The notes below the pieces were generated by a model, which worked only from the letters and a program-made list of their open reading frames with translations, did not search any database and had not been told where the DNA came from. DNA of 64,000 nt. Source: Candidatus Dojkabacteria bacterium HGW-Dojkabacteria-1 (GTDB taxonomy: Bacteria > Patescibacteriota > Dojkabacteria > SC72). The position numbers and the translations under genes were made by a program. The first letter of the stretch is position 1. Each line of letters begins with the position of its first letter. Positions 2,216 through 43,568 of the stretch are shown here, one piece after another. The stretch lies in assembly GCA_002840365.1 (NCBI GenBank), contig PHAO01000001.1:15594-79593 (forward strand), in the 5' to 3' direction.

Positions 2216-4738
2216 CTAAAAATTAATAGGTGGGAATGGACTTGGTGACTGAGGTTTCTCTTCTACTTTTTTATCCAAATCAGACCTTCTGTTTATATCA
2301 AGGTTTACGATATTTACATCCCTACCATATTTAAGTCTAGACATCTGTTTAATAATTCTTGCAACCTCAGTATTCGATTTCATATCAAATCCACTCTCAG
2401 GGAATTTAGGACCATACCTAGTATCCAACGAAAACGGACTTGGATACGAACCATTATTAAGCATCTTTACATAGTAATGACCCATTCCTTGATTTATTAA
2501 ATCTGTTGCTTTTACATATGATTCAAACTGAGGCTCTAAGAAATTTCCATCATCAGTACCACATCTTGCGATAAAGAGAGATCCAACGTTACCAAAAACA
2601 GCCCCTTTTATATTCTCAGGTAGCTGACCTATATATTGATGTGCAAGTGTGAGATTGAGTTTGTATTTTCTTGCTTCTGAAAGAATAGAGGTAAACTCAT
2701 CTGTAGCAAAATTTTGGAACTCATCTGCATAAAAGAAGAAGTCTTTTCTCTGATCTTCAGATATATTTTCTCTACTCAACGCAGCAGCTAGCATTTTTTG
2801 TACCAAGAGCAACCCCAAAAAGGACATATTCTCTTCACCTAAAAGACCCTTTGCTAGATTTACAATTAATATCTTACCTCCATCCATAACCTCTCTAAAA
2901 TCAAAGGATGATTGAGATTGCCCTATTACATTCCTAATCGCTAGGTTCGTAGTAAATTTATCAAACTTAGAGATAAAGTAACCCAAACTCTCAGATTTGG
3001 TCTTTTGATCTGTCTTTGCAACCTGGTCTACCCAATATCTTCTAACTAACTCATCTTTAATTATTGGAAGCCACTTTTCTTGTACCCATTTTTCATCCTG
3101 TAATATTCTAACTACCTCTATTAATGTCGAACCTTTTTCACTCATAGCAGTTAACATTGCATTTCTTACTGCCTGCTGCATCATAGGACCAACATATCCT
3201 TGATTATGAGGATCAAATAATCGTATAAGTAAGGCGATAAAGCTATTTACTATCTGATGCATATGCTGCTCATTGTAATATTCCATAATGTTTAAACCAA
3301 AAGGTCTTTCAAAATCTGCAGCATTGAAATATATAACATCCTCTACTCTCTCTGGTGGTATTCTTTCTAATATCATTTCAGCAGTTTGACCATGGGGATC
3401 TATGAAACAAACACCATCACCATTATAGATGTCTTGTATTATCATTCTTGTCATAAGCCAAGATTTACCAGTACCTGTTTGACCTAAAATATAACTATGC
3501 CTTCTTCTATCCTCCCTTTGGAAACATATCGCTTTTACCTTATCTCTAAACACATTGTTACCAACCCACACGGTATCTTTTGATTTAATATCAGAACTAA
3601 TGACATTGTCTGCAGGAATTTCCCTTGCAAGTAGCCAGTTAATATTAGGAGTTGTTATTTCTTTGTTAGGGAAGTGATATATAGTTGCCAACTCTTCGAC
3701 ATTCAGGATACTTACTTGTTCAATAGAACTTCTCCTATATACAACATCCAACATAAATTCCTTCTCTTGCTCCTTACCTTTTATTGATATTTTCTTAAAC
3801 CTATTTATCCCTGGGTTACTGAATTGGTCAAAGGCACCCACTATATTGTCCAAATGCATATTAGCAAGGGATTCATCAGATGCTGTTGTAACAATTCTAA
3901 TATCTGTATTAAAACCATTTTTAGAAACCTTTTTACTAATACCTTGTAATTTCTCCTGGCTTACATTTATTTTTTTCTTTTCAGGGTCTGAGTTGTTGTT
4001 CTCAACCTTTTTTACAAAAGAAGCACCATTCTTTTGCCACTTACTATCACTTGGAGAAATAACTACTTGAATCATAGCACCCTCCCCTTCAGACATTTTG
4101 CTTAGTGTACTAAGGATATTGGCAAGAGGATCTCCTGTAAAATCTTCAGATACTTTTATTGGATTATAGCTATCATCATCAAGTGCTAAACGTGTGAATG
4201 CAACTTTCGAATTATCTCCAAAGATGTTGTAATCATCTACCTTTTTAACATCTGCATCTTGATATGAACCTAGTATTTGTTTTTCAACTAAATCTCCTAA
4301 CTTCTTAGGGCTATATACATAGAATTTAATCTCTCCTGGTAATGCCATTATCTCAAAACTAATTGAATTACTAACTGTGAATTTCTCTGCAAAGCCCTTT
4401 CCTTTACCACCAATACCAACAAGATTAGCAAACATTTTTTCGGCCACTCCTACTTCTGTTTCGTTCCCTCTTGGTACACGAACCTCATACAAGGTCCAAT
4501 CTTTTGCTTTGTCGTTTCTATCCTTCTTTTGTAGTTTTTTTCTTATCCTAAAGAATGCAAAGGCTCCTAGTCCTGCAATCAAAACAAGAAGTACAAGTAT
4601 ACCCCATGGAAAAGTAAAACCAGAGCCTGTCATTTCGCCATATGTATCTTTTGGATATTGCTTTGGGTCCGCTATTATTACTTCATCATCTCTGTTTGAT
4701 GGCATTGGACCTATTTGAGCAAGAGTATATGATTTCAT
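2216..4738 (-). CDS. Type IV secretion-type P-loop ATPase (VirB4/TrbE or VirD4/TraG-like; FtsK-HerA superfamily) with an N-terminal transmembrane segment.
   Basis: Walker A GQTGTGKSWLM lies near residue 420 and Walker B FFYADEFQNF near residue 670, with a downstream LTLAHQYIGQL motif. A single transmembrane helix (FTFPWGILVLLVLIAGLGAFAFF) lies near the N-terminus. The layout (Walker A about 420 aa in) resembles VirB4, while the DEFxNF box resembles T4SS coupling proteins. Confidence 0.55.
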   Translation of the reverse strand: MKSYTLAQIGPMPSNRDDEVIIADPKQYPKDTYGEMTGSGFTFPWGILVLLVLIAGLGAFAFFRIRKKLQKKDRNDKAKDWTLYEVRVPRGNETEVGVAEKMFANLVGIGGKGKGFAEKFTVSNSISFEIMALPGEIKFYVYSPKKLGDLVEKQILGSYQDADVKKVDDYNIFGDNSKVAFTRLALDDDSYNPIKVSEDFTGDPLANILSTLSKMSEGEGAMIQVVISPSDSKWQKNGASFVKKVENNNSDPEKKKINVSQEKLQGISKKVSKNGFNTDIRIVTTASDESLANMHLDNIVGAFDQFSNPGINRFKKISIKGKEQEKEFMLDVVYRRSSIEQVSILNVEELATIYHFPNKEITTPNINWLLAREIPADNVISSDIKSKDTVWVGNNVFRDKVKAICFQREDRRRHSYILGQTGTGKSWLMTRMIIQDIYNGDGVCFIDPHGQTAEMILERIPPERVEDVIYFNAADFERPFGLNIMEYYNEQHMHQIVNSFIALLIRLFDPHNQGYVGPMMQQAVRNAMLTAMSEKGSTLIEVVRILQDEKWVQEKWLPIIKDELVRRYWVDQVAKTDQKTKSESLGYFISKFDKFTTNLAIRNVIGQSQSSFDFREVMDGGKILIVNLAKGLLGEENMSFLGLLLVQKMLAAALSRENISEDQRKDFFFYADEFQNFATDEFTSILSEARKYKLNLTLAHQYIGQLPENIKGAVFGNVGSLFIARCGTDDGNFLEPQFESYVKATDLINQGMGHYYVKMLNNGSYPSPFSLDTRYGPKFPESGFDMKSNTEVARIIKQMSRLKYGRDVNIVNLDINRRSDLDKKVEEKPQSPSPFPPINF

Positions 4739-21930: not shown

Positions 21931-22340
21931 TGGTGGAGACGGTGGGATTCGAACCCACGTCCAAAAGTTAAGAACTGTGCCATATACAAATGTATTTAGA
22001 TTTATATAGCCAAACAAAGCTAAAAATCTAACAAAAAACTCTGTTTGCTCAGTAATTGTATTCAACTAATATCCCCTACTGACAAGAGATAGTAGCTATA
22101 CCCTAGTAACGACTATCTAACACACTAACTAGAGATAGAAGTGTTAGACACTAACCGAACTTAATCAGCTAGACTTAAGCAAAATTGTAAGCATATAAAG
22201 GTGCAGTGAATGCAGCCCTTAGCTTACTTGCAAAAGCGTTAAGTTTGTTTTCTACACTTATCTGTGCTTTAGTTTTACGAACTAAAAAACGATTTGTGAC
22301 AAACAGCCCCTATGACTTCTGTCGAAAGCCTTACGTCCCC
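21931..22340 (-). ncRNA. ssrA: Transfer-messenger RNA (tmRNA, ssrA).
   Basis: The minus-strand 5' end GGGGACGTAAGGCTTTCGAC and 3' end GTGGGTTCGAATCCCACCGTCTCCACCA match the tmRNA tRNA-like domain consensus. An internal open frame ...ASKLRAAFTAPLYAYNFA-TAA (stop at 22177..22175) gives a Mycoplasma-like ...NFA tag ending. The length is about 410 nt. Confidence 0.85.
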
Positions 22341-39482: not shown

Positions 39483-41759
39483 ATGAAAAAAGAAATACCT
39501 AAAGCTTTTGATTCGAATTCAAAGGAAAAAGAAATATACAAAATTTGGGAAAATTCAGGCTTATGCAGACCAGAGGGAATAGAAGAGCTGCTTAAACAAA
39601 ATGGTTTGAAGATAAAGAGTCCTTTTACAATTGTTCTTCCTCCTCCCAATGCTAATGCTAATTTACATATAGGGCATATGTGTGGGTATTCTTTCCAAGA
39701 TGCTATGGGTAGATATCAAAGAATGACAGGCCATCCTACTCTACTCTTGCCGGGTAAAGATCACGCAGGTATTCAAACAGAGACTTCTTTTACAAAGGTC
39801 TTGAAAGAGAAAGGTATAGACAAGTGGGAAATGGGAAAAGAAGAGTTTTACAAACAGTGCTATGCATTCTCAATGGGAAATGCTTCAAACGCAAGAGAAC
39901 AGGAAAAGAATATCGGTTTAAGTGCAGATTATACAAGGGAATTGTTTACTCTAGATCCTAAATTAACAAAGATTGTCTATGATACCTTTTATAAAATGTA
40001 CAAAGAAGGGTTAATTTACAGAGACAAAAGGATAATAAATCAGTGCCCTAATTGTAAAACTGCCCTTGCAGATATCGATACAGAACATGAAGAAAGGAGA
40101 GGTATTTTTGCATATATTGTTTATCCCTTTGTTGAGGAGGAAGATAGGAAGAGAGCTAAAGAAAAGTTTGGAGTTGAAGGTATTACTGTTGCAACTACTA
40201 GACCAGAGACTATGCTTGGTGATAGTGCAGTTGCTGTTAATCCTCAAGATACAAGATACAAAGAGTTTGTTGGTAAGAAAGTCCTACTCCCTATCGCAAA
40301 TAGGGAAATACCAATAATTGCTGATTCTGATATAGATATTGAACTTGGAACAGGTGCTCTGAAAGTTACACCAGCCCATTCTCCTGTTGATTTTGAAATT
40401 GGTAAAAAGCATGGCCTTGAAATTATCAATGTTATTAATGAAGAGGGAAAAATGACTGGTAGTATACCTGAAAGATTCTTAGGTATGGAAACAGTAGAGT
40501 GCTCAAAAGCTTTAGTTAAGGAATTAAGTGAAAAGGGTTTGTTGATAAAGATTGAGAATATTAAACATGAGATAAGTATTTGTGAAAGATGCAGAACAGC
40601 TATAGAACCCATTATCTCCAACCAATGGTATGTTGATGTTAATCCTTTAGCTAAAAAGGCCTTAGAAGTACTAAAGCAAGGAGAAACGACAGTTATACCT
40701 TCTGGTCAGCAAAAGGCATTAGAACACTTCTTTAACAATATCCAACCATGGTGTATATCAAGACAGCTTTGGTGGGGTCAAAGAATACCTGTTTGGTATA
40801 GTGGTAGTAAAAAATTGCATGATTGGTTAAGAGAGAATGAAGGAAAGGATATTGCTGAATTTAAAAAGGAGACTGGTGAAGAAGCTCGGGGAACGGGGGA
40901 AATATATCTTGGAGAAAATGCCCCTGATGATTTTGGAATATGGGAAGCTGAAGAAGATATGTTTGATACTTGGTTTAGTTCTGGGCAATGGCCATACTCC
41001 ACTTTGGGAGGTATAGGGGGAGAGGATTACAAAAAATACTATCCTACTCAAGTTATGGAAACAGCTAGGGATATTCTTTTCTGGTGGGTTGCAAGAATGA
41101 TGATGATGGGTATATATACAACAGGAAAGACACCATTTTCTACAGTCTTTCTACATGGCTTAATTCTTGCTGCTGATGGTAGTAAGATGTCAAAGTCTAA
41201 AGGTAATGGTGTTGAACCTACCGAAGTTATTAACAAATATGGAGCAGATGCTCTACGTCTTTGGTACTTTAGTGATGCACTACCAGGGTCTAATGCACCT
41301 GTTAGAGAAGAAAAGATAAAGGGAAATAGGAATTTTGTTAACAAGATATGGAATGCTTCCAGATTTATCTTGATGAATATAGATGAATCAGAATTAGAAA
41401 AAATATCTAATCATGAATTAGATATGTCTTTGTCAAGAATTAAAGAAACTCAAGAGCATACTATAAAGGTATTAAAATATCTTGAGAAATTCCAATTTAA
41501 TCTAGGAGCGGAAGCTATTAGAGAATTCTTTTGGCATCAGCTATGTGATATATGGATAGAGGAAATTAAGGGAGAGATAAAGGATGAGGAAATAGGGTCT
41601 GAGGAAAGAGTTGAGAAACTAAGTGAATTACTTTGGATTCTTAAGAGTAACTTAAAGATTATGCACCCATTTGTTCCTTTCATTACGGAATCAGTCTGGC
41701 AAGAATTAGTAAATCTAGAGCTTGCAGAGGGGATATTAATGGGAGAGCAGATATCATAA
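39483..41759 (+). CDS. valS: Valine--tRNA ligase (short form).
   Basis: It carries the class I HIGH motif (PNANANLHIGH) and the KMSKS motif (GSKMSKSKGN), together with the editing domain. The ATG at 39483 is preferred over the GTG at 39450, which lies inside the T-box terminator. Confidence 0.85.
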   Translation: MKKEIPKAFDSNSKEKEIYKIWENSGLCRPEGIEELLKQNGLKIKSPFTIVLPPPNANANLHIGHMCGYSFQDAMGRYQRMTGHPTLLLPGKDHAGIQTETSFTKVLKEKGIDKWEMGKEEFYKQCYAFSMGNASNAREQEKNIGLSADYTRELFTLDPKLTKIVYDTFYKMYKEGLIYRDKRIINQCPNCKTALADIDTEHEERRGIFAYIVYPFVEEEDRKRAKEKFGVEGITVATTRPETMLGDSAVAVNPQDTRYKEFVGKKVLLPIANREIPIIADSDIDIELGTGALKVTPAHSPVDFEIGKKHGLEIINVINEEGKMTGSIPERFLGMETVECSKALVKELSEKGLLIKIENIKHEISICERCRTAIEPIISNQWYVDVNPLAKKALEVLKQGETTVIPSGQQKALEHFFNNIQPWCISRQLWWGQRIPVWYSGSKKLHDWLRENEGKDIAEFKKETGEEARGTGEIYLGENAPDDFGIWEAEEDMFDTWFSSGQWPYSTLGGIGGEDYKKYYPTQVMETARDILFWWVARMMMMGIYTTGKTPFSTVFLHGLILAADGSKMSKSKGNGVEPTEVINKYGADALRLWYFSDALPGSNAPVREEKIKGNRNFVNKIWNASRFILMNIDESELEKISNHELDMSLSRIKETQEHTIKVLKYLEKFQFNLGAEAIREFFWHQLCDIWIEEIKGEIKDEEIGSEERVEKLSELLWILKSNLKIMHPFVPFITESVWQELVNLELAEGILMGEQIS

Positions 41760-41769
41760 AGGGAATGAG

Positions 41770-41847
41770 GATGGAGAGAGTCCGCGATATTGAAATCGTG
41801 ATGTATGGACTCTCTCCATCAGGTTGAGAAGCTAAGCTTTTCAACCT
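41770..41847. terminator. Two adjacent stem-loops between convergent genes, forming a putative bidirectional terminator.
   Basis: The first is GATGGAGAGAGTCC…(23-nt loop)…GGACTCTCTCCATC (41770-41820). The second is AGGTTGA-GAAGCtaaGCTTtTC-TCAACCT (41821-41847). No clean U-tract follows either. Confidence 0.35.
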
Positions 41848-41865
41848 AGAGTGGATCACCTCCTC

Positions 41866-41985
41866 TCAGTGGCCTTTCTTGCCATTTGTCTCCCTTGTGG
41901 GTTTCTGTTTCTTCTTTTCCTCCTCTTTCGAGGCTAAAGAAGATAACTTTGCCTTACCCTTTTCAGGATACGAAGAACTGGACAT
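41866..41985 (-). CDS. Small Lys-rich protein of 39 aa with a strong ribosome-binding site, hypothetical.
   Basis: The minus strand reads AAAAGGAGGTGGATT-ATG, then MSSSSYPEKGKAKLSSLASKEEEKKKQKPTRETNGKKGH, then TGA. The coding strand is purine-rich. It is not in the ORF track because it is shorter than 60 aa. Confidence 0.4.
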   Translation of the reverse strand: MSSSSYPEKGKAKLSSLASKEEEKKKQKPTRETNGKKGH

Positions 41986-42122
41986 AATCCACCTCCTTTT
42001 CTACTTTTATCAAAAAGATTTTATTTTGAAAACTGACAATTAACACGTCTTATAGTTTTAGTTATAAACGTTCAAGTTATGGTTAGTTCTAATAACCACG
42101 ATTTAGTTATATAATACTCACT

Positions 42123-43568
42123 ATGAACAACAAAAAACTGTATATTACAACAACACTCCCCTATGTAAATGCTGAACCACATATCGGTCATGCCTTGGAA
42201 TTTGTTCAGGCAGACGCCATCTCAAGATATTTTAAATCCAAACTTGGAAAAGAAAATGTATTCTTCAATGTTGGTACCGATGAGCATGGTCAAAAAATGT
42301 TTAAAAAGGCACAAGAGGAGGGTTTAGAAATACAGGAGTTTGTTAATAAATACGCTCAAAGATTCAAAGATTTCTGTAAATTGTTCTTTGTTGATTATGA
42401 TTTCTTCTATAGAACTTCAGATGAAAATCATCATAAAGCAGCTCAAGAATTTTGGAAAAGATGTAAAGAAAAGGGAGATATATACAAAAAAAGATATAGT
42501 GGTAAATATTGTGTCGGTTGTGAAAGATATATTACAGAAAAAGAGCTAGTTGATGGAAAGTGTCCTGACCATGGAACTGAGCCAGAAGAGAAGGATGAAG
42601 AGAACTATTTCTTTAAGCTTACTAATTACAAAGACCATCTATTAAAGTGGTTGGATTCTAATCCAGAAGTTTTAAAACCTAAACAGAAGAGAGAGGAATT
42701 AAAAAGAATTATAGAGGAAATTGAGGATATAAGTATATCAAGATTAAGAGAGAATCTTCCTTGGGGAATTGAAGTTCCAGATGACCCTGAACAGGTTTTC
42801 TATGTATGGTTTGATGCATTAACTAACTATGTTAATGTTATTGGTTTTGGAACAGATGAAGAAAAATTAAATGAATGGTGGCCAGGAATACAGCTCTTTG
42901 GTCCTGATAACTTGAGATTTCAAGGAGTTATATGGCAAGGAATGTTGGCTTCTGTTGGATTAGATCACAGTCAGAAGCTTCTAGAGCATGGTATGGTACT
43001 TGGTCCTGATGGTACTAAGATGGCAAAAACAAAAGGTAATGTAATCTCTCCGTTTGATCAGGAAGAGAAGTTTGGAGCAGAAATTGTAAGATTCTATCTT
43101 CTTGTTGGTATCCCAACATTTTCAGATTCCGCTTACAAAGAAGATGATTTAATAAATATGTATAATTCAAGATTGGCTAATAATTTTGGTAATCTGCTTA
43201 ACAGGGTAATCCATTTAGCCCAAAGCAAGGGGGTAGAGATTAACAAAGAGGAATTGGTTGAACAAGATTTTAAGAGAAAGGTTGATTCTATGAGAGAAGA
43301 GATAGAATCATATTACAATGATTATGAGATAGCTTTAGCTGCAGGAAAGATAGATGAATTAGCTGATTGGGGGAATAAATATATAACTGAGAAGGAGCCA
43401 TGGAGTAAAGAATTAGATTTTGATACTTGTCAAAATATCCTTAACAATCTTGGCTATCTCCTAAAAACCGTAATAGAACTATATTCTCCTATTGTTCCAG
43501 AGAGTTGTAGTAAAGCTAAAATAGCTCTTGAGAGAAATGAAAAGATTATTCTTTTCAACAAGATATAG
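42123..43568 (+). CDS. metG: Methionine--tRNA ligase (short form).
   Basis: It carries the HIGH motif (NAEPHIGH), the KMSKS-like GTKMAKTKGN, and CxxC knuckles (CVGCERY…CPDHG). Confidence 0.85.
   Translation: MNNKKLYITTTLPYVNAEPHIGHALEFVQADAISRYFKSKLGKENVFFNVGTDEHGQKMFKKAQEEGLEIQEFVNKYAQRFKDFCKLFFVDYDFFYRTSDENHHKAAQEFWKRCKEKGDIYKKRYSGKYCVGCERYITEKELVDGKCPDHGTEPEEKDEENYFFKLTNYKDHLLKWLDSNPEVLKPKQKREELKRIIEEIEDISISRLRENLPWGIEVPDDPEQVFYVWFDALTNYVNVIGFGTDEEKLNEWWPGIQLFGPDNLRFQGVIWQGMLASVGLDHSQKLLEHGMVLGPDGTKMAKTKGNVISPFDQEEKFGAEIVRFYLLVGIPTFSDSAYKEDDLINMYNSRLANNFGNLLNRVIHLAQSKGVEINKEELVEQDFKRKVDSMREEIESYYNDYEIALAAGKIDELADWGNKYITEKEPWSKELDFDTCQNILNNLGYLLKTVIELYSPIVPESCSKAKIALERNEKIILFNKI

Follow-up and report, generated by a model that had tools for sequence, protein, structure and literature searches.

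The 64,000-nucleotide stretch analysed here (the window) is part of contig PHAO01000001.1 of Candidatus Dojkabacteria bacterium HGW-Dojkabacteria-1. It contains a spacer of 363 nt between valS and metG (window 41760–42122), and a minus-strand micro-gene sits inside this spacer. With its predicted signals, the micro-gene would form a self-contained minus-strand transcription unit of ~240 nt. The unit runs in order from an extended −10 promoter through a strong Shine-Dalgarno (SD) sequence at the 5′ end (SD1), a Lys-rich open reading frame (ORF) of 39 codons and a second SD-like sequence (SD2) to two hairpins, of which the one designated HP1 abuts the convergent valS. We interpret the locus as a conserved Dojkabacteria micro-gene with a probably self-regulating mRNA that would be opened by ribosome docking; taken as a whole, this statement is evenly poised between right and wrong, and its parts are graded separately below. 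The features of the module are as follows.

42027–42032, minus strand: −35-like hexamer TTTTCA, 17 nt upstream of the −10 hexamer
42004–42012, minus strand: extended −10 element TGATAAAAG; the consensus across family members is TGnTAtAAn
41990–41999, minus strand: SD1, AAAGGAGGTG, with GATT and ATG after it; it matches the complement of the 16S 3′ tail over 10 nt, and its GGAGG is at 41996–41992
41866–41985, minus strand: micro-gene ORF, 39 amino acids plus TGA, MSSSSYPEKGKAKLSSLASKEEEKKKQKPTRETNGKKGH; ATG at 41985–41983, TGA at 41868–41866
41853–41864, minus strand: SD2, AGGAGGTGATCC; complementary to the 16S 3′ tail GGAUCACCUCCU at all 12 nt
41821–41847, minus strand: HP2, a 13-bp hairpin formed by a 13-nt palindrome (41821–41833 with 41835–41847)
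41770–41820, minus strand: HP1, a 14-bp outer stem, GAUGGAGAGAGUCC with GGACUCUCUCCAUC, enclosing a 4-bp inner hairpin; the outer stem is a perfect inverted repeat (41770–41783 with 41807–41820)

The locus had been singled out in an original prediction made from the letters of this DNA, and the sequence statements of that prediction hold, namely the ORF coordinates, the SD and the translation, the stems and the palindrome, and the presence of the string GGATCACCTCCT on the plus strand. It had also ranked SD1 among the strongest SD sequences in the window, which was borne out by a survey of all GGAGG sites. The 16S tail of this genome was taken to be GGAUCACCUCCUUUCU, on the strength of its universal conservation and of the SDs used in the window. 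There are 75 GGAGG sites on the two strands of the 64-kb window, and the two longest 16S-tail complements both lie in the micro-gene module. SD2 is the longest with 12 nt (41864–41853) and SD1 the second-longest with 10 nt (41999–41990), while the next best site has 9 nt. The ribosome-binding signals of the micro-gene exceed chance. The 39-codon ORF alone is within chance, since 57 ORFs of at least 30 amino acids occur within 8 kb here.

Further members were sought with the peptide by tblastn, after which the valS–metG spacers of 36 related species were inspected. The relatives found via methionyl-tRNA synthetase (MetRS) are metagenome-assembled genomes of Candidatus Dojkabacteria (WS6; Candidate Phyla Radiation (CPR)/Patescibacteria), and individual loci are designated here by L numbers. 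An intact minus-strand ORF with a strong SD was present in the spacers of 14 of the 36 species, and six clusters from a profile search added further DNA loci, which gave 20 members with an intact ORF. Retention of the ORF in the same spacer of relatives, which the original prediction had named as a check, is therefore partial: the ORF is intact in these 14 species, and the module is absent from about half of the relatives. The 20 members are spread across the whole tree of valyl-tRNA synthetase (ValRS) and have an ATG or GTG start with GGAGG 5–9 nt upstream; the arrangement GGAGGTGGAT-N-ATG is kept in most of them. The sequence upstream of the ATG in the window is aaaaggaggtggattATG. Variants of the extended −10 element (TGATATAAT, TGATATTAT, TGATATAAA, TGTTATAAA, TGGTATAAA and similar) precede GGAGG by 6–9 nt in no fewer than 16 of the 20 members, and TTTTCAAA, TTCCAAA or TTTACAAA is found at the same −35-like distance (~17 nt) in most of the 20. 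Transcription would start near 41997, and the mRNA would thus begin at SD1.

The ORF is under coding selection. In an alignment of 18 sequences over the 13-codon core, the summed entropies of codon positions 1, 2 and 3 are 6.4, 7.8 and 17.1, respectively, which is the synonymous-site variation in relatives that the original prediction had proposed to look for. The core codons switch freely between GAA and GAG, AAA and AAG, and CAA and CAG, as well as within CCN and ACN, and the peptide core E-E-K-K-K-Q-K-P-T is conserved. Near-identical strains differ by two single-nucleotide polymorphisms in the ORF, both synonymous, versus eight in the upstream non-coding stretch. The antisense frame with shared wobble positions mirrors the conservation (AVGFCFFFSSSFE); in relatives this mirrored frame has stops at varying places and neither a conserved start nor a conserved SD. 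On the grounds of its conservation, SD, promoter and codon-position pattern and of the broken antisense frame, the minus-strand ORF is almost certainly a genuine protein-coding gene, in agreement with the earlier proposal of a real minus-strand gene. That proposal had also described the ORF as hidden, which applies to part of the public assemblies of this contig: gene callers call it in some and miss it in others with the same intact ORF (L006). Two further frames were considered as genes and rejected. A 54-aa plus-strand ORF (41879–42043) has wobble positions that coincide with those of the sense frame, and it is broken and startless in relatives. A 58-aa minus-strand ORF (41683–41859) starting inside SD2 is not conserved, and the corresponding frame in L011 stops after 4 codons.

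A profile search of 5.8 billion proteins returned 25 clusters, all unnamed and 37–64 aa in length. An exhaustive profile search of 1.84 billion representatives retrieved family members only, and Pfam and NCBIfam searches with four family members at E-values up to 10 gave no match save a chance one to DUF3896 (E = 0.13). A metagenome scan with the pattern GGAGGTGATCN{10,40}TGGAGAGAG yielded no further family members among the matches listed and retrieved unrelated GC-rich sequences instead. Judged from the sequences covered by these searches, the family is confined to Dojkabacteria and is lineage-restricted. It occurs in a long form of 46–54 aa with the pattern ...GKLTSLSSKEEEKKKQKPTAGVGRKKGGD[PQR]S.KRNGH, a short form of 35–40 aa, to which the window gene belongs, and a mini form of 26–31 aa. 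In a hand alignment, the window short form differs from the long form by an apparent 11-nt insertion that brings in the stop. The long, short and mini forms and the module-less lineages are intermingled on a neighbour-joining tree of ValRS, and this scatter suggests an ancestral gene that was repeatedly shortened and lost. In L020 the ORF is deleted while HP1 and half of HP2 remain, and in L010 the ORF and SD2 remain while the hairpins are gone; these patterns indicate that the ORF and the hairpin are separable and that each is maintained. The module-less lineages have a spacer of ~95 nt with a simple 7-bp hairpin. The constant neighbour of the module is valS, always convergent. metG is divergent in loci of the window type, and lies upstream, co-directional and 51 nt away in L088, L090, L092 and L093.

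The peptides of the family are hydrophilic and basic, with a grand average of hydropathy of −1.5 to −2.1 and an isoelectric point of 9.9–11.3. This composition is compatible with a ribosome- or RNA-associated factor. A type I toxin or small membrane peptide was rejected on the same hydropathy values and on the absence of a hydrophobic transmembrane segment, and a leader peptide or attenuator because only valS, in antisense, lies downstream on the ORF strand. In the clade of mini forms (L027, L031 and L058), the stretch between the first ORF and SD2 holds another SD (AGAAAGGAG) and another, very small ORF. This second ORF is an ATG-TGA start-stop in L027, MNNPGSFNTERR in L031, where it ends with AGG AGG TGA inside SD2, and MLFNNNTL in L058, where it ends 1 nt before SD2.

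The plus-strand string that resembles the 16S 3′ end (GGATCACCTCCT, 41853–41864, plus strand) had been dismissed in the original prediction as an incidental complement of the end of the ORF. It is located just past the stop codon and outside the window ORF, and it is not incidental, being kept in 19 of the 20 members whatever the frame. Its complement on the ORF strand, (A)GGAGGTGATCC, is a perfect match to the 16S 3′ tail. In the window, SD2 starts 2 nt after the stop codon, with its GGAGG core 5 nt after the first base of TGA. Across members the motif is [GA]A[AG]GGAGGTGATC[CA], which is perfectly complementary to the universal 16S tail GGAUCACCUCCUUUC, and the complementarity reaches up to 15 nt (GAAAGGAGGTGATCC) in relatives. 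There is one copy per locus, found only in the valS-adjoining spacer. No start codon (ATG, GTG or TTG) is present at usable spacing after SD2 in the members.

The motif is conserved independently of the reading frame: it occurs in all three frames, and its position ranges from 33 nt ahead of the stop to 51 nt beyond it. In the long forms it encodes Lys-Gly-Gly-Asp; in L011 and L043 it holds the stop codon in another frame (AGG AGG TGA); in the window type its GGAGG core begins 3–5 nt after the first stop-codon base; and in the mini forms it lies 49–51 nt past the stop. Its codons in eight long forms are GGA/GGG, GGT and GAT, without the synonymous scatter of the nearby Pro and Thr codons. The sole variant, GGGGGUGAUC, retains full pairing with the 16S tail via one G·U pair. 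Because SD2 is kept whatever the frame, lacks synonymous scatter and still pairs in its variant form, it is very likely under selection at the nucleotide level.

HP1 ends 10 nt from the valS stop codon, and its covariance model gave exactly one match per locus. Across 14 members, 96.3% of the cells of the stem are paired, compared with 36–51% in a control in which the partners were slid by 1–3 columns. Both sides have changed in 10 of the 18 pairs, and the covariation score is 0.335 versus 0.186 for shuffles, with none of 500 shuffles reaching 0.335. The stem also shows a strand preference, with 9 G·U versus 4 A·C on the ORF strand and 7 versus 1 in the stem core; the HP1 variants of the mini clade add four more G·U on the ORF strand by hand count. 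In many relatives, HP1 has a pyrimidine- or U-rich tail after it on the ORF strand; this tail is clear in L090, L092, L093, L094, L027 and L031. The corresponding U-tract in the window is weak (CCUCAUUCCCUUUAUG), and no U-tract follows HP1 or HP2 on the valS strand in the window. The covariation, the G·U bias towards the ORF strand and the U-rich tails in relatives together suggest that HP1 is probably a structured terminator of the micro-gene on the ORF strand. The stem-loops had been described as a bidirectional terminator; a real structure 3′ of the ORF was confirmed, and the bidirectionality is less well supported, as the covariation, G·U pairs and U-tails favour the ORF strand and the valS strand is without a U-tract.

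A terminator scan made no call at the module, the loop of HP1 being 23 nt against a scan criterion of 3–8 nt. Rfam searched over the spacer gave nothing at the gathering score and, in E-value mode, only chance matches (E ≥ 0.11). HP2 varies in sequence and length among relatives at a constant position and is missing in L009 and L010. Two other roles for HP1 were rejected. A mini-ORF inside it (ATGGAGAGAGTC...) changes frame among relatives through loop indels, and an anticodon mimic in the inner loop is not consistent with its differing letters (UUCAAU, UUUAAU, UUUUAC and others).

Predicted transcripts of the members were folded at full length, starting at SD1 and ending shortly after HP1. 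In the minimum free energy (MFE) structure of the window transcript, a closing helix is predicted between the two mRNA ends, with the following strands.

41984–41993, minus strand: 5′ strand of the closing helix in the MFE structure, GGUGGAUUAU (3′ part of SD1, spacer and AU of the start codon)
41850–41859, minus strand: 3′ strand of the closing helix by thermodynamic prediction, GUGAUCCACU (second half of SD2 and the linker ACUCU)

The predicted helix in the window consists of 10 bp including three G·U pairs, which again fit the ORF strand. The initiation region pairs with the 3′ element in the MFE structures of all eight members displayed. The first half of the 3′ element (GGAGG) pairs with the pyrimidine-rich first codons (Ser/Phe/Pro/Leu-rich), and the second half (GAUCCA-CUCU), which resembles the same-strand 16S tail, covers SD1. 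The predicted helix of L094 has 14 bp, UGAUCAUUUCUUUU with AAAGGAGGUGAUCA. The closing duplex has an energy of −20 to −26 kcal/mol in 11 of the 20 members, with z-scores against shuffles of −3 to −5 in ten of them and −2.7 in the eleventh. Partition functions gave 10–21 expected inter-window base pairs (initiation region to 3′ element) in 14 of 18 members, versus 1.4–8 with dinucleotide-shuffled 3′ elements. Cognate ends pair more strongly than non-cognate ends (−20.0 versus −18.2 kcal/mol; permutation p ~0.002). Among the 75 GGAGG segments, the micro-gene's own translation initiation region (TIR) ranks first for pairing with the 3′ element (−26.1 versus −14.2 ± 3.7 kcal/mol). A closing helix with ribosome-dependent opening is suggested by these energies as a serious possibility that falls a little short of an even chance.

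In the mechanism that we propose, the initiation region (SD1, AUG and the pyrimidine-rich first codons) would pair with the 3′ element (the purine-rich last codons, SD2 and ACUCU), and this end pairing would form an mRNA panhandle in which both SDs are hidden and the 5′ end is base-paired. A 30S subunit or a terminating ribosome would dock on SD2 via the 16S tail, compete with the closing helix and free SD1, and whether the micro-gene is translated would hinge on ribosome access. RNA in the closed or the ribosome-bound state would be shielded from 5′-exonucleolytic decay by RNase J. The peptide would most likely be a dispensable ribosome- or RNA-associated factor. Both the docking of 30S at SD2 and the role of the peptide are what we infer from this model.

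Several observations weigh against this interpretation. In L009, L012 and the three mini members the closing helix is weak or missing. Its partners are near-invariant and its register shifts between lineages, so that column covariation is not scorable and the helix rests on energy models; L016 was considered as a compensatory double change and rejected, since its MFE structure disagrees. The transcription start, the 3′ end and the translation of the micro-gene are all deduced from the DNA. In the long, probably ancestral, form, SD2 also encodes Gly-Gly-Asp, and its conservation is thus partly coding. SD2 is placed at the ORF end or beyond it, with only some 100 nt of hairpins on its 3′ side, unlike the SD-like sequences of 5′ leaders that are discussed below. 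The module has been lost many times and is therefore not essential. The profile and family searches gave no peptide homologue of known function, and AlphaFold2 on the family alignment gave no confident fold (predicted local distance difference test score 62, predicted template modelling score 0.17), with a single helix at residues 17–25.

For icaR (PMC3868564) and hbs (PMC5737220), pairing between the 5′ and 3′ untranslated regions (UTRs) has been documented to control translation or decay. The 3′-UTR of the Staphylococcus aureus icaR mRNA carries a UCCCCUG motif that pairs with its own SD (PMC3868564). The hbs mRNA of Bacillus subtilis has a strong SD that blocks RNase J1 and a 14-bp interaction between its 5′- and 3′-UTRs (PMC5737220). 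The micro-gene resembles icaR in its 3′ pyrimidine motif complementary to the SD region of the same mRNA, where pairing is predicted and would be expected to block initiation. The conserved 3′ segment complementary to the own SD region that characterizes icaR is found here by prediction, with shuffled, non-cognate and genome-wide controls. It differs from icaR in the length of the mRNA, only ~240 nt with a peptide of 26–51 aa, in a 3′ partner that adjoins and overlaps a perfect SD-like sequence, and in helix strands that are pseudo-symmetric (GGAGG, a GAUC-centred core and pyrimidines). The likeness to hbs lies in a short mRNA that encodes a small basic protein and is presumably highly expressed, an SD of great strength close to the 5′ end, a predicted long-range 5′/3′ pairing and an RNase J gene in the genome. 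In contrast to the long structured 5′-UTR of hbs, that of the micro-gene is predicted to be ~12 nt; the 3′ partner in hbs is not SD-like, whereas the pairing of the micro-gene would cover both the SD and the start codon.

SD2 invites comparison with two further systems. STAB-SDs of the cryIIIA type are long SD-like sequences in 5′ leaders that protect downstream mRNA. Like them, SD2 is long and SD-like, lacks a start codon and presumably binds the 16S 3′ end; it differs in its 3′ location. Known ribosome standby sites are located upstream of a structured initiation region and are not sequence-specific SD matches. The likeness proposed here is that 30S would bind at some distance from a structured initiation region and gain access when the structure opens, with the difference that SD2 is 3′ of the ORF and would be brought beside the TIR only by the predicted helix.

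Other explanations of the module were weighed against the same data. One would dispense with the gene altogether and regard the ORF as a chance frame in a purine-rich spacer in which only the hairpins are functional, as a bidirectional terminator. Similar-sized ORFs are indeed common by chance in this AT-rich genome, and about half of the relatives make do with the simple hairpin in their ~95-nt spacer. Since the ATG, SD, promoter and open frame are kept in 20 lineages with a third-position substitution pattern, and since L010 and L020 each retain one of the two parts without the other, this explanation is scarcely credible. SD2 might instead act in translation inside the ORF or at its end, stimulating programmed frameshifting or marking a pause site as in prfB or dnaX. 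This would accord with the long forms, in which the SD-like sequence is in the ORF 24–33 nt before the stop with a hairpin ~7 nt downstream, and with the stop embedded in the motif in L011 and L043. Against it, the offset of the GGT-GAT frame is 0, +1 or −1 by lineage, no slippery heptamer was found between motif and hairpin, all three frames stop within a few codons and would give no extended product, and the motif of the mini clade lies far past the stop. Programmed frameshifting was rejected for its inconsistent frames and the lack of a slippery site and of an extended product, and the explanation as a whole is very improbable.

More weight attaches to the idea that the RNA itself is the product and the peptide irrelevant, the RNA serving as a small ribosome-binding sponge or sensor for the 16S tail, with translation of the ORF merely opening the structure or giving an arrest or leader peptide. 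The presence of two 16S-tail complements of exceptional length in a single ~240-nt RNA would fit this idea, as would a peptide without a predicted fold and a C-terminal tail truncated in three different ways with the nucleotide motif retained. The N-terminal residues are likewise highly variable, yet their pyrimidine-rich codons (Ser, Phe, Pro, Leu and Thr) pair with SD2 in the folds. It is opposed by the Q-K-P-T core, which is invariant or nearly so in amino acids while the third positions are free, a sign of selection on the peptide sequence: in one alignment Q27 and K28 are invariant and E23 and P29 occur in at least 90% of the rows, and in another K28 and T30 are invariant with Q27 and P29 at 90% or above. 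The locus also offers no same-strand downstream gene for a leader to regulate. On balance we consider a pure RNA function unlikely. Still somewhat less probable is a role of the plus strand, in which GGAUCACCUCCU(UUC) in the valS 3′-UTR would mimic the 16S 3′ end after two h44/h45-like hairpins and would either pair with the valS SD, as in icaR, or titrate a tail-binding protein such as Era. The string is identical to the universal 16S 3′ end over 12–15 nt, the module is always found directly next to the valS stop whichever way metG points, and valS transcripts, having no U-tract on their strand, may read through the hairpins. The G·U pairs in HP1 and in the closing helix, however, favour the ORF strand (9 versus 4 overall and 7 versus 1 in the stem core, to which the mini clade adds), and the variant GGGGGUGAUC keeps the 16S-tail pairing but spoils the plus-strand mimic (GAUCACCCCC). 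About half of the relatives, moreover, have valS without the module. We thus prefer the protein-coding micro-gene with an mRNA that may be closed through SD2.

The genes on either side of the spacer are as follows.

39483–41759 (alternative start 39450), plus strand: valS, valine–tRNA ligase (NCBIfam, 829.9 bits)
42123–43568, plus strand: metG, methionine–tRNA ligase of 481 aa (NCBIfam)

An RNase J gene (NCBIfam) is located directly upstream of valS. The window ValRS has 758–769 aa and matches positions 2–686 of the 860 positions of the NCBIfam profile; at 758 aa, this short ValRS would be without the C-terminal coiled coil. A different MetRS, of 554–579 aa and mostly with an Anticodon_3 domain, is found in those relatives that combine the long peptide form with a co-directional metG. 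In the window, metG is seemingly leaderless or nearly so (42083–42125, plus strand), with a perfect TATAAT at 42110–42115, 7 nt before the ATG at 42123, and no SD. The ORF-less relatives have the same TTATATAAT-type element just upstream of metG. The valS–metG spacer is ~1.1 kb in L038 and L042, versus 95–400 nt elsewhere, with the end of valS at ~2875/2835 and the start of metG at 4001. Elsewhere in the 64-kb window there are a tmRNA gene (21931–22340, minus strand) with the tag peptide VENKLNAFASKLRAAFTAPLYAYNFA and six tRNA genes.

The metagenome scan described above also retrieved two recurrent groups unrelated to the family. The first is a widespread GC-rich element, found at L099 (2023–2120, plus strand), L096, L103, L106, L117 and at least about 50 other loci. 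It has the form CACAAAATCTGTG...GGCAAC...GAAAGGAGGTGATCCA-GTG TCT AGA GTG ATA TTG GAG AGA GGT GTC GGG ACA GTC..., that is, a perfect 15-nt SD, a GTG and then an ORF of ~18–19 codons (MSRVILERGVGTV...), and it gave no Rfam match at the four loci tested. The second group (L098, L100, L104, L105, L107 and others among the matches listed) has the form ...GATCCGCGGAGGTGATCACCGCGATG(A/T)ATGGAGAGAGATGGTGGAAGG... and is probably part of a conserved coding region in some unrelated organism.

The genomes of CPR bacteria are tiny, few regulators are known in them, and to our knowledge almost nothing has been described of their small proteins or of control at the level of mRNA. In the most far-reaching form of the interpretation, which we think improbable, the micro-mRNA would be a sensor of free ribosomal subunits, in which SD1 and SD2 hide each other and a free 30S on SD2 unlocks SD1. 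If this were true, the Lys-rich peptide would be made only when idle subunits are present and would act back on ribosomes or on the neighbouring truncated ValRS and MetRS, so that a CPR bacterium with a tiny genome would have a minimal feedback loop acting on its capacity for translation. At the level of the family, the locus defines a lineage-restricted micro-protein family with an mRNA design that has not been described as such, namely two extended SDs, one of them start-less, placed so that the mRNA ends can pair. It also illustrates that a nucleotide motif can persist while the reading frame over it, here SD2, changes three times. If the closing helix and the docking of 30S are real, the micro-gene would provide a compact and easily testable model of the coupling between ribosome binding, mRNA structure and decay. 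SD-like sequences at 3′ positions merit attention.

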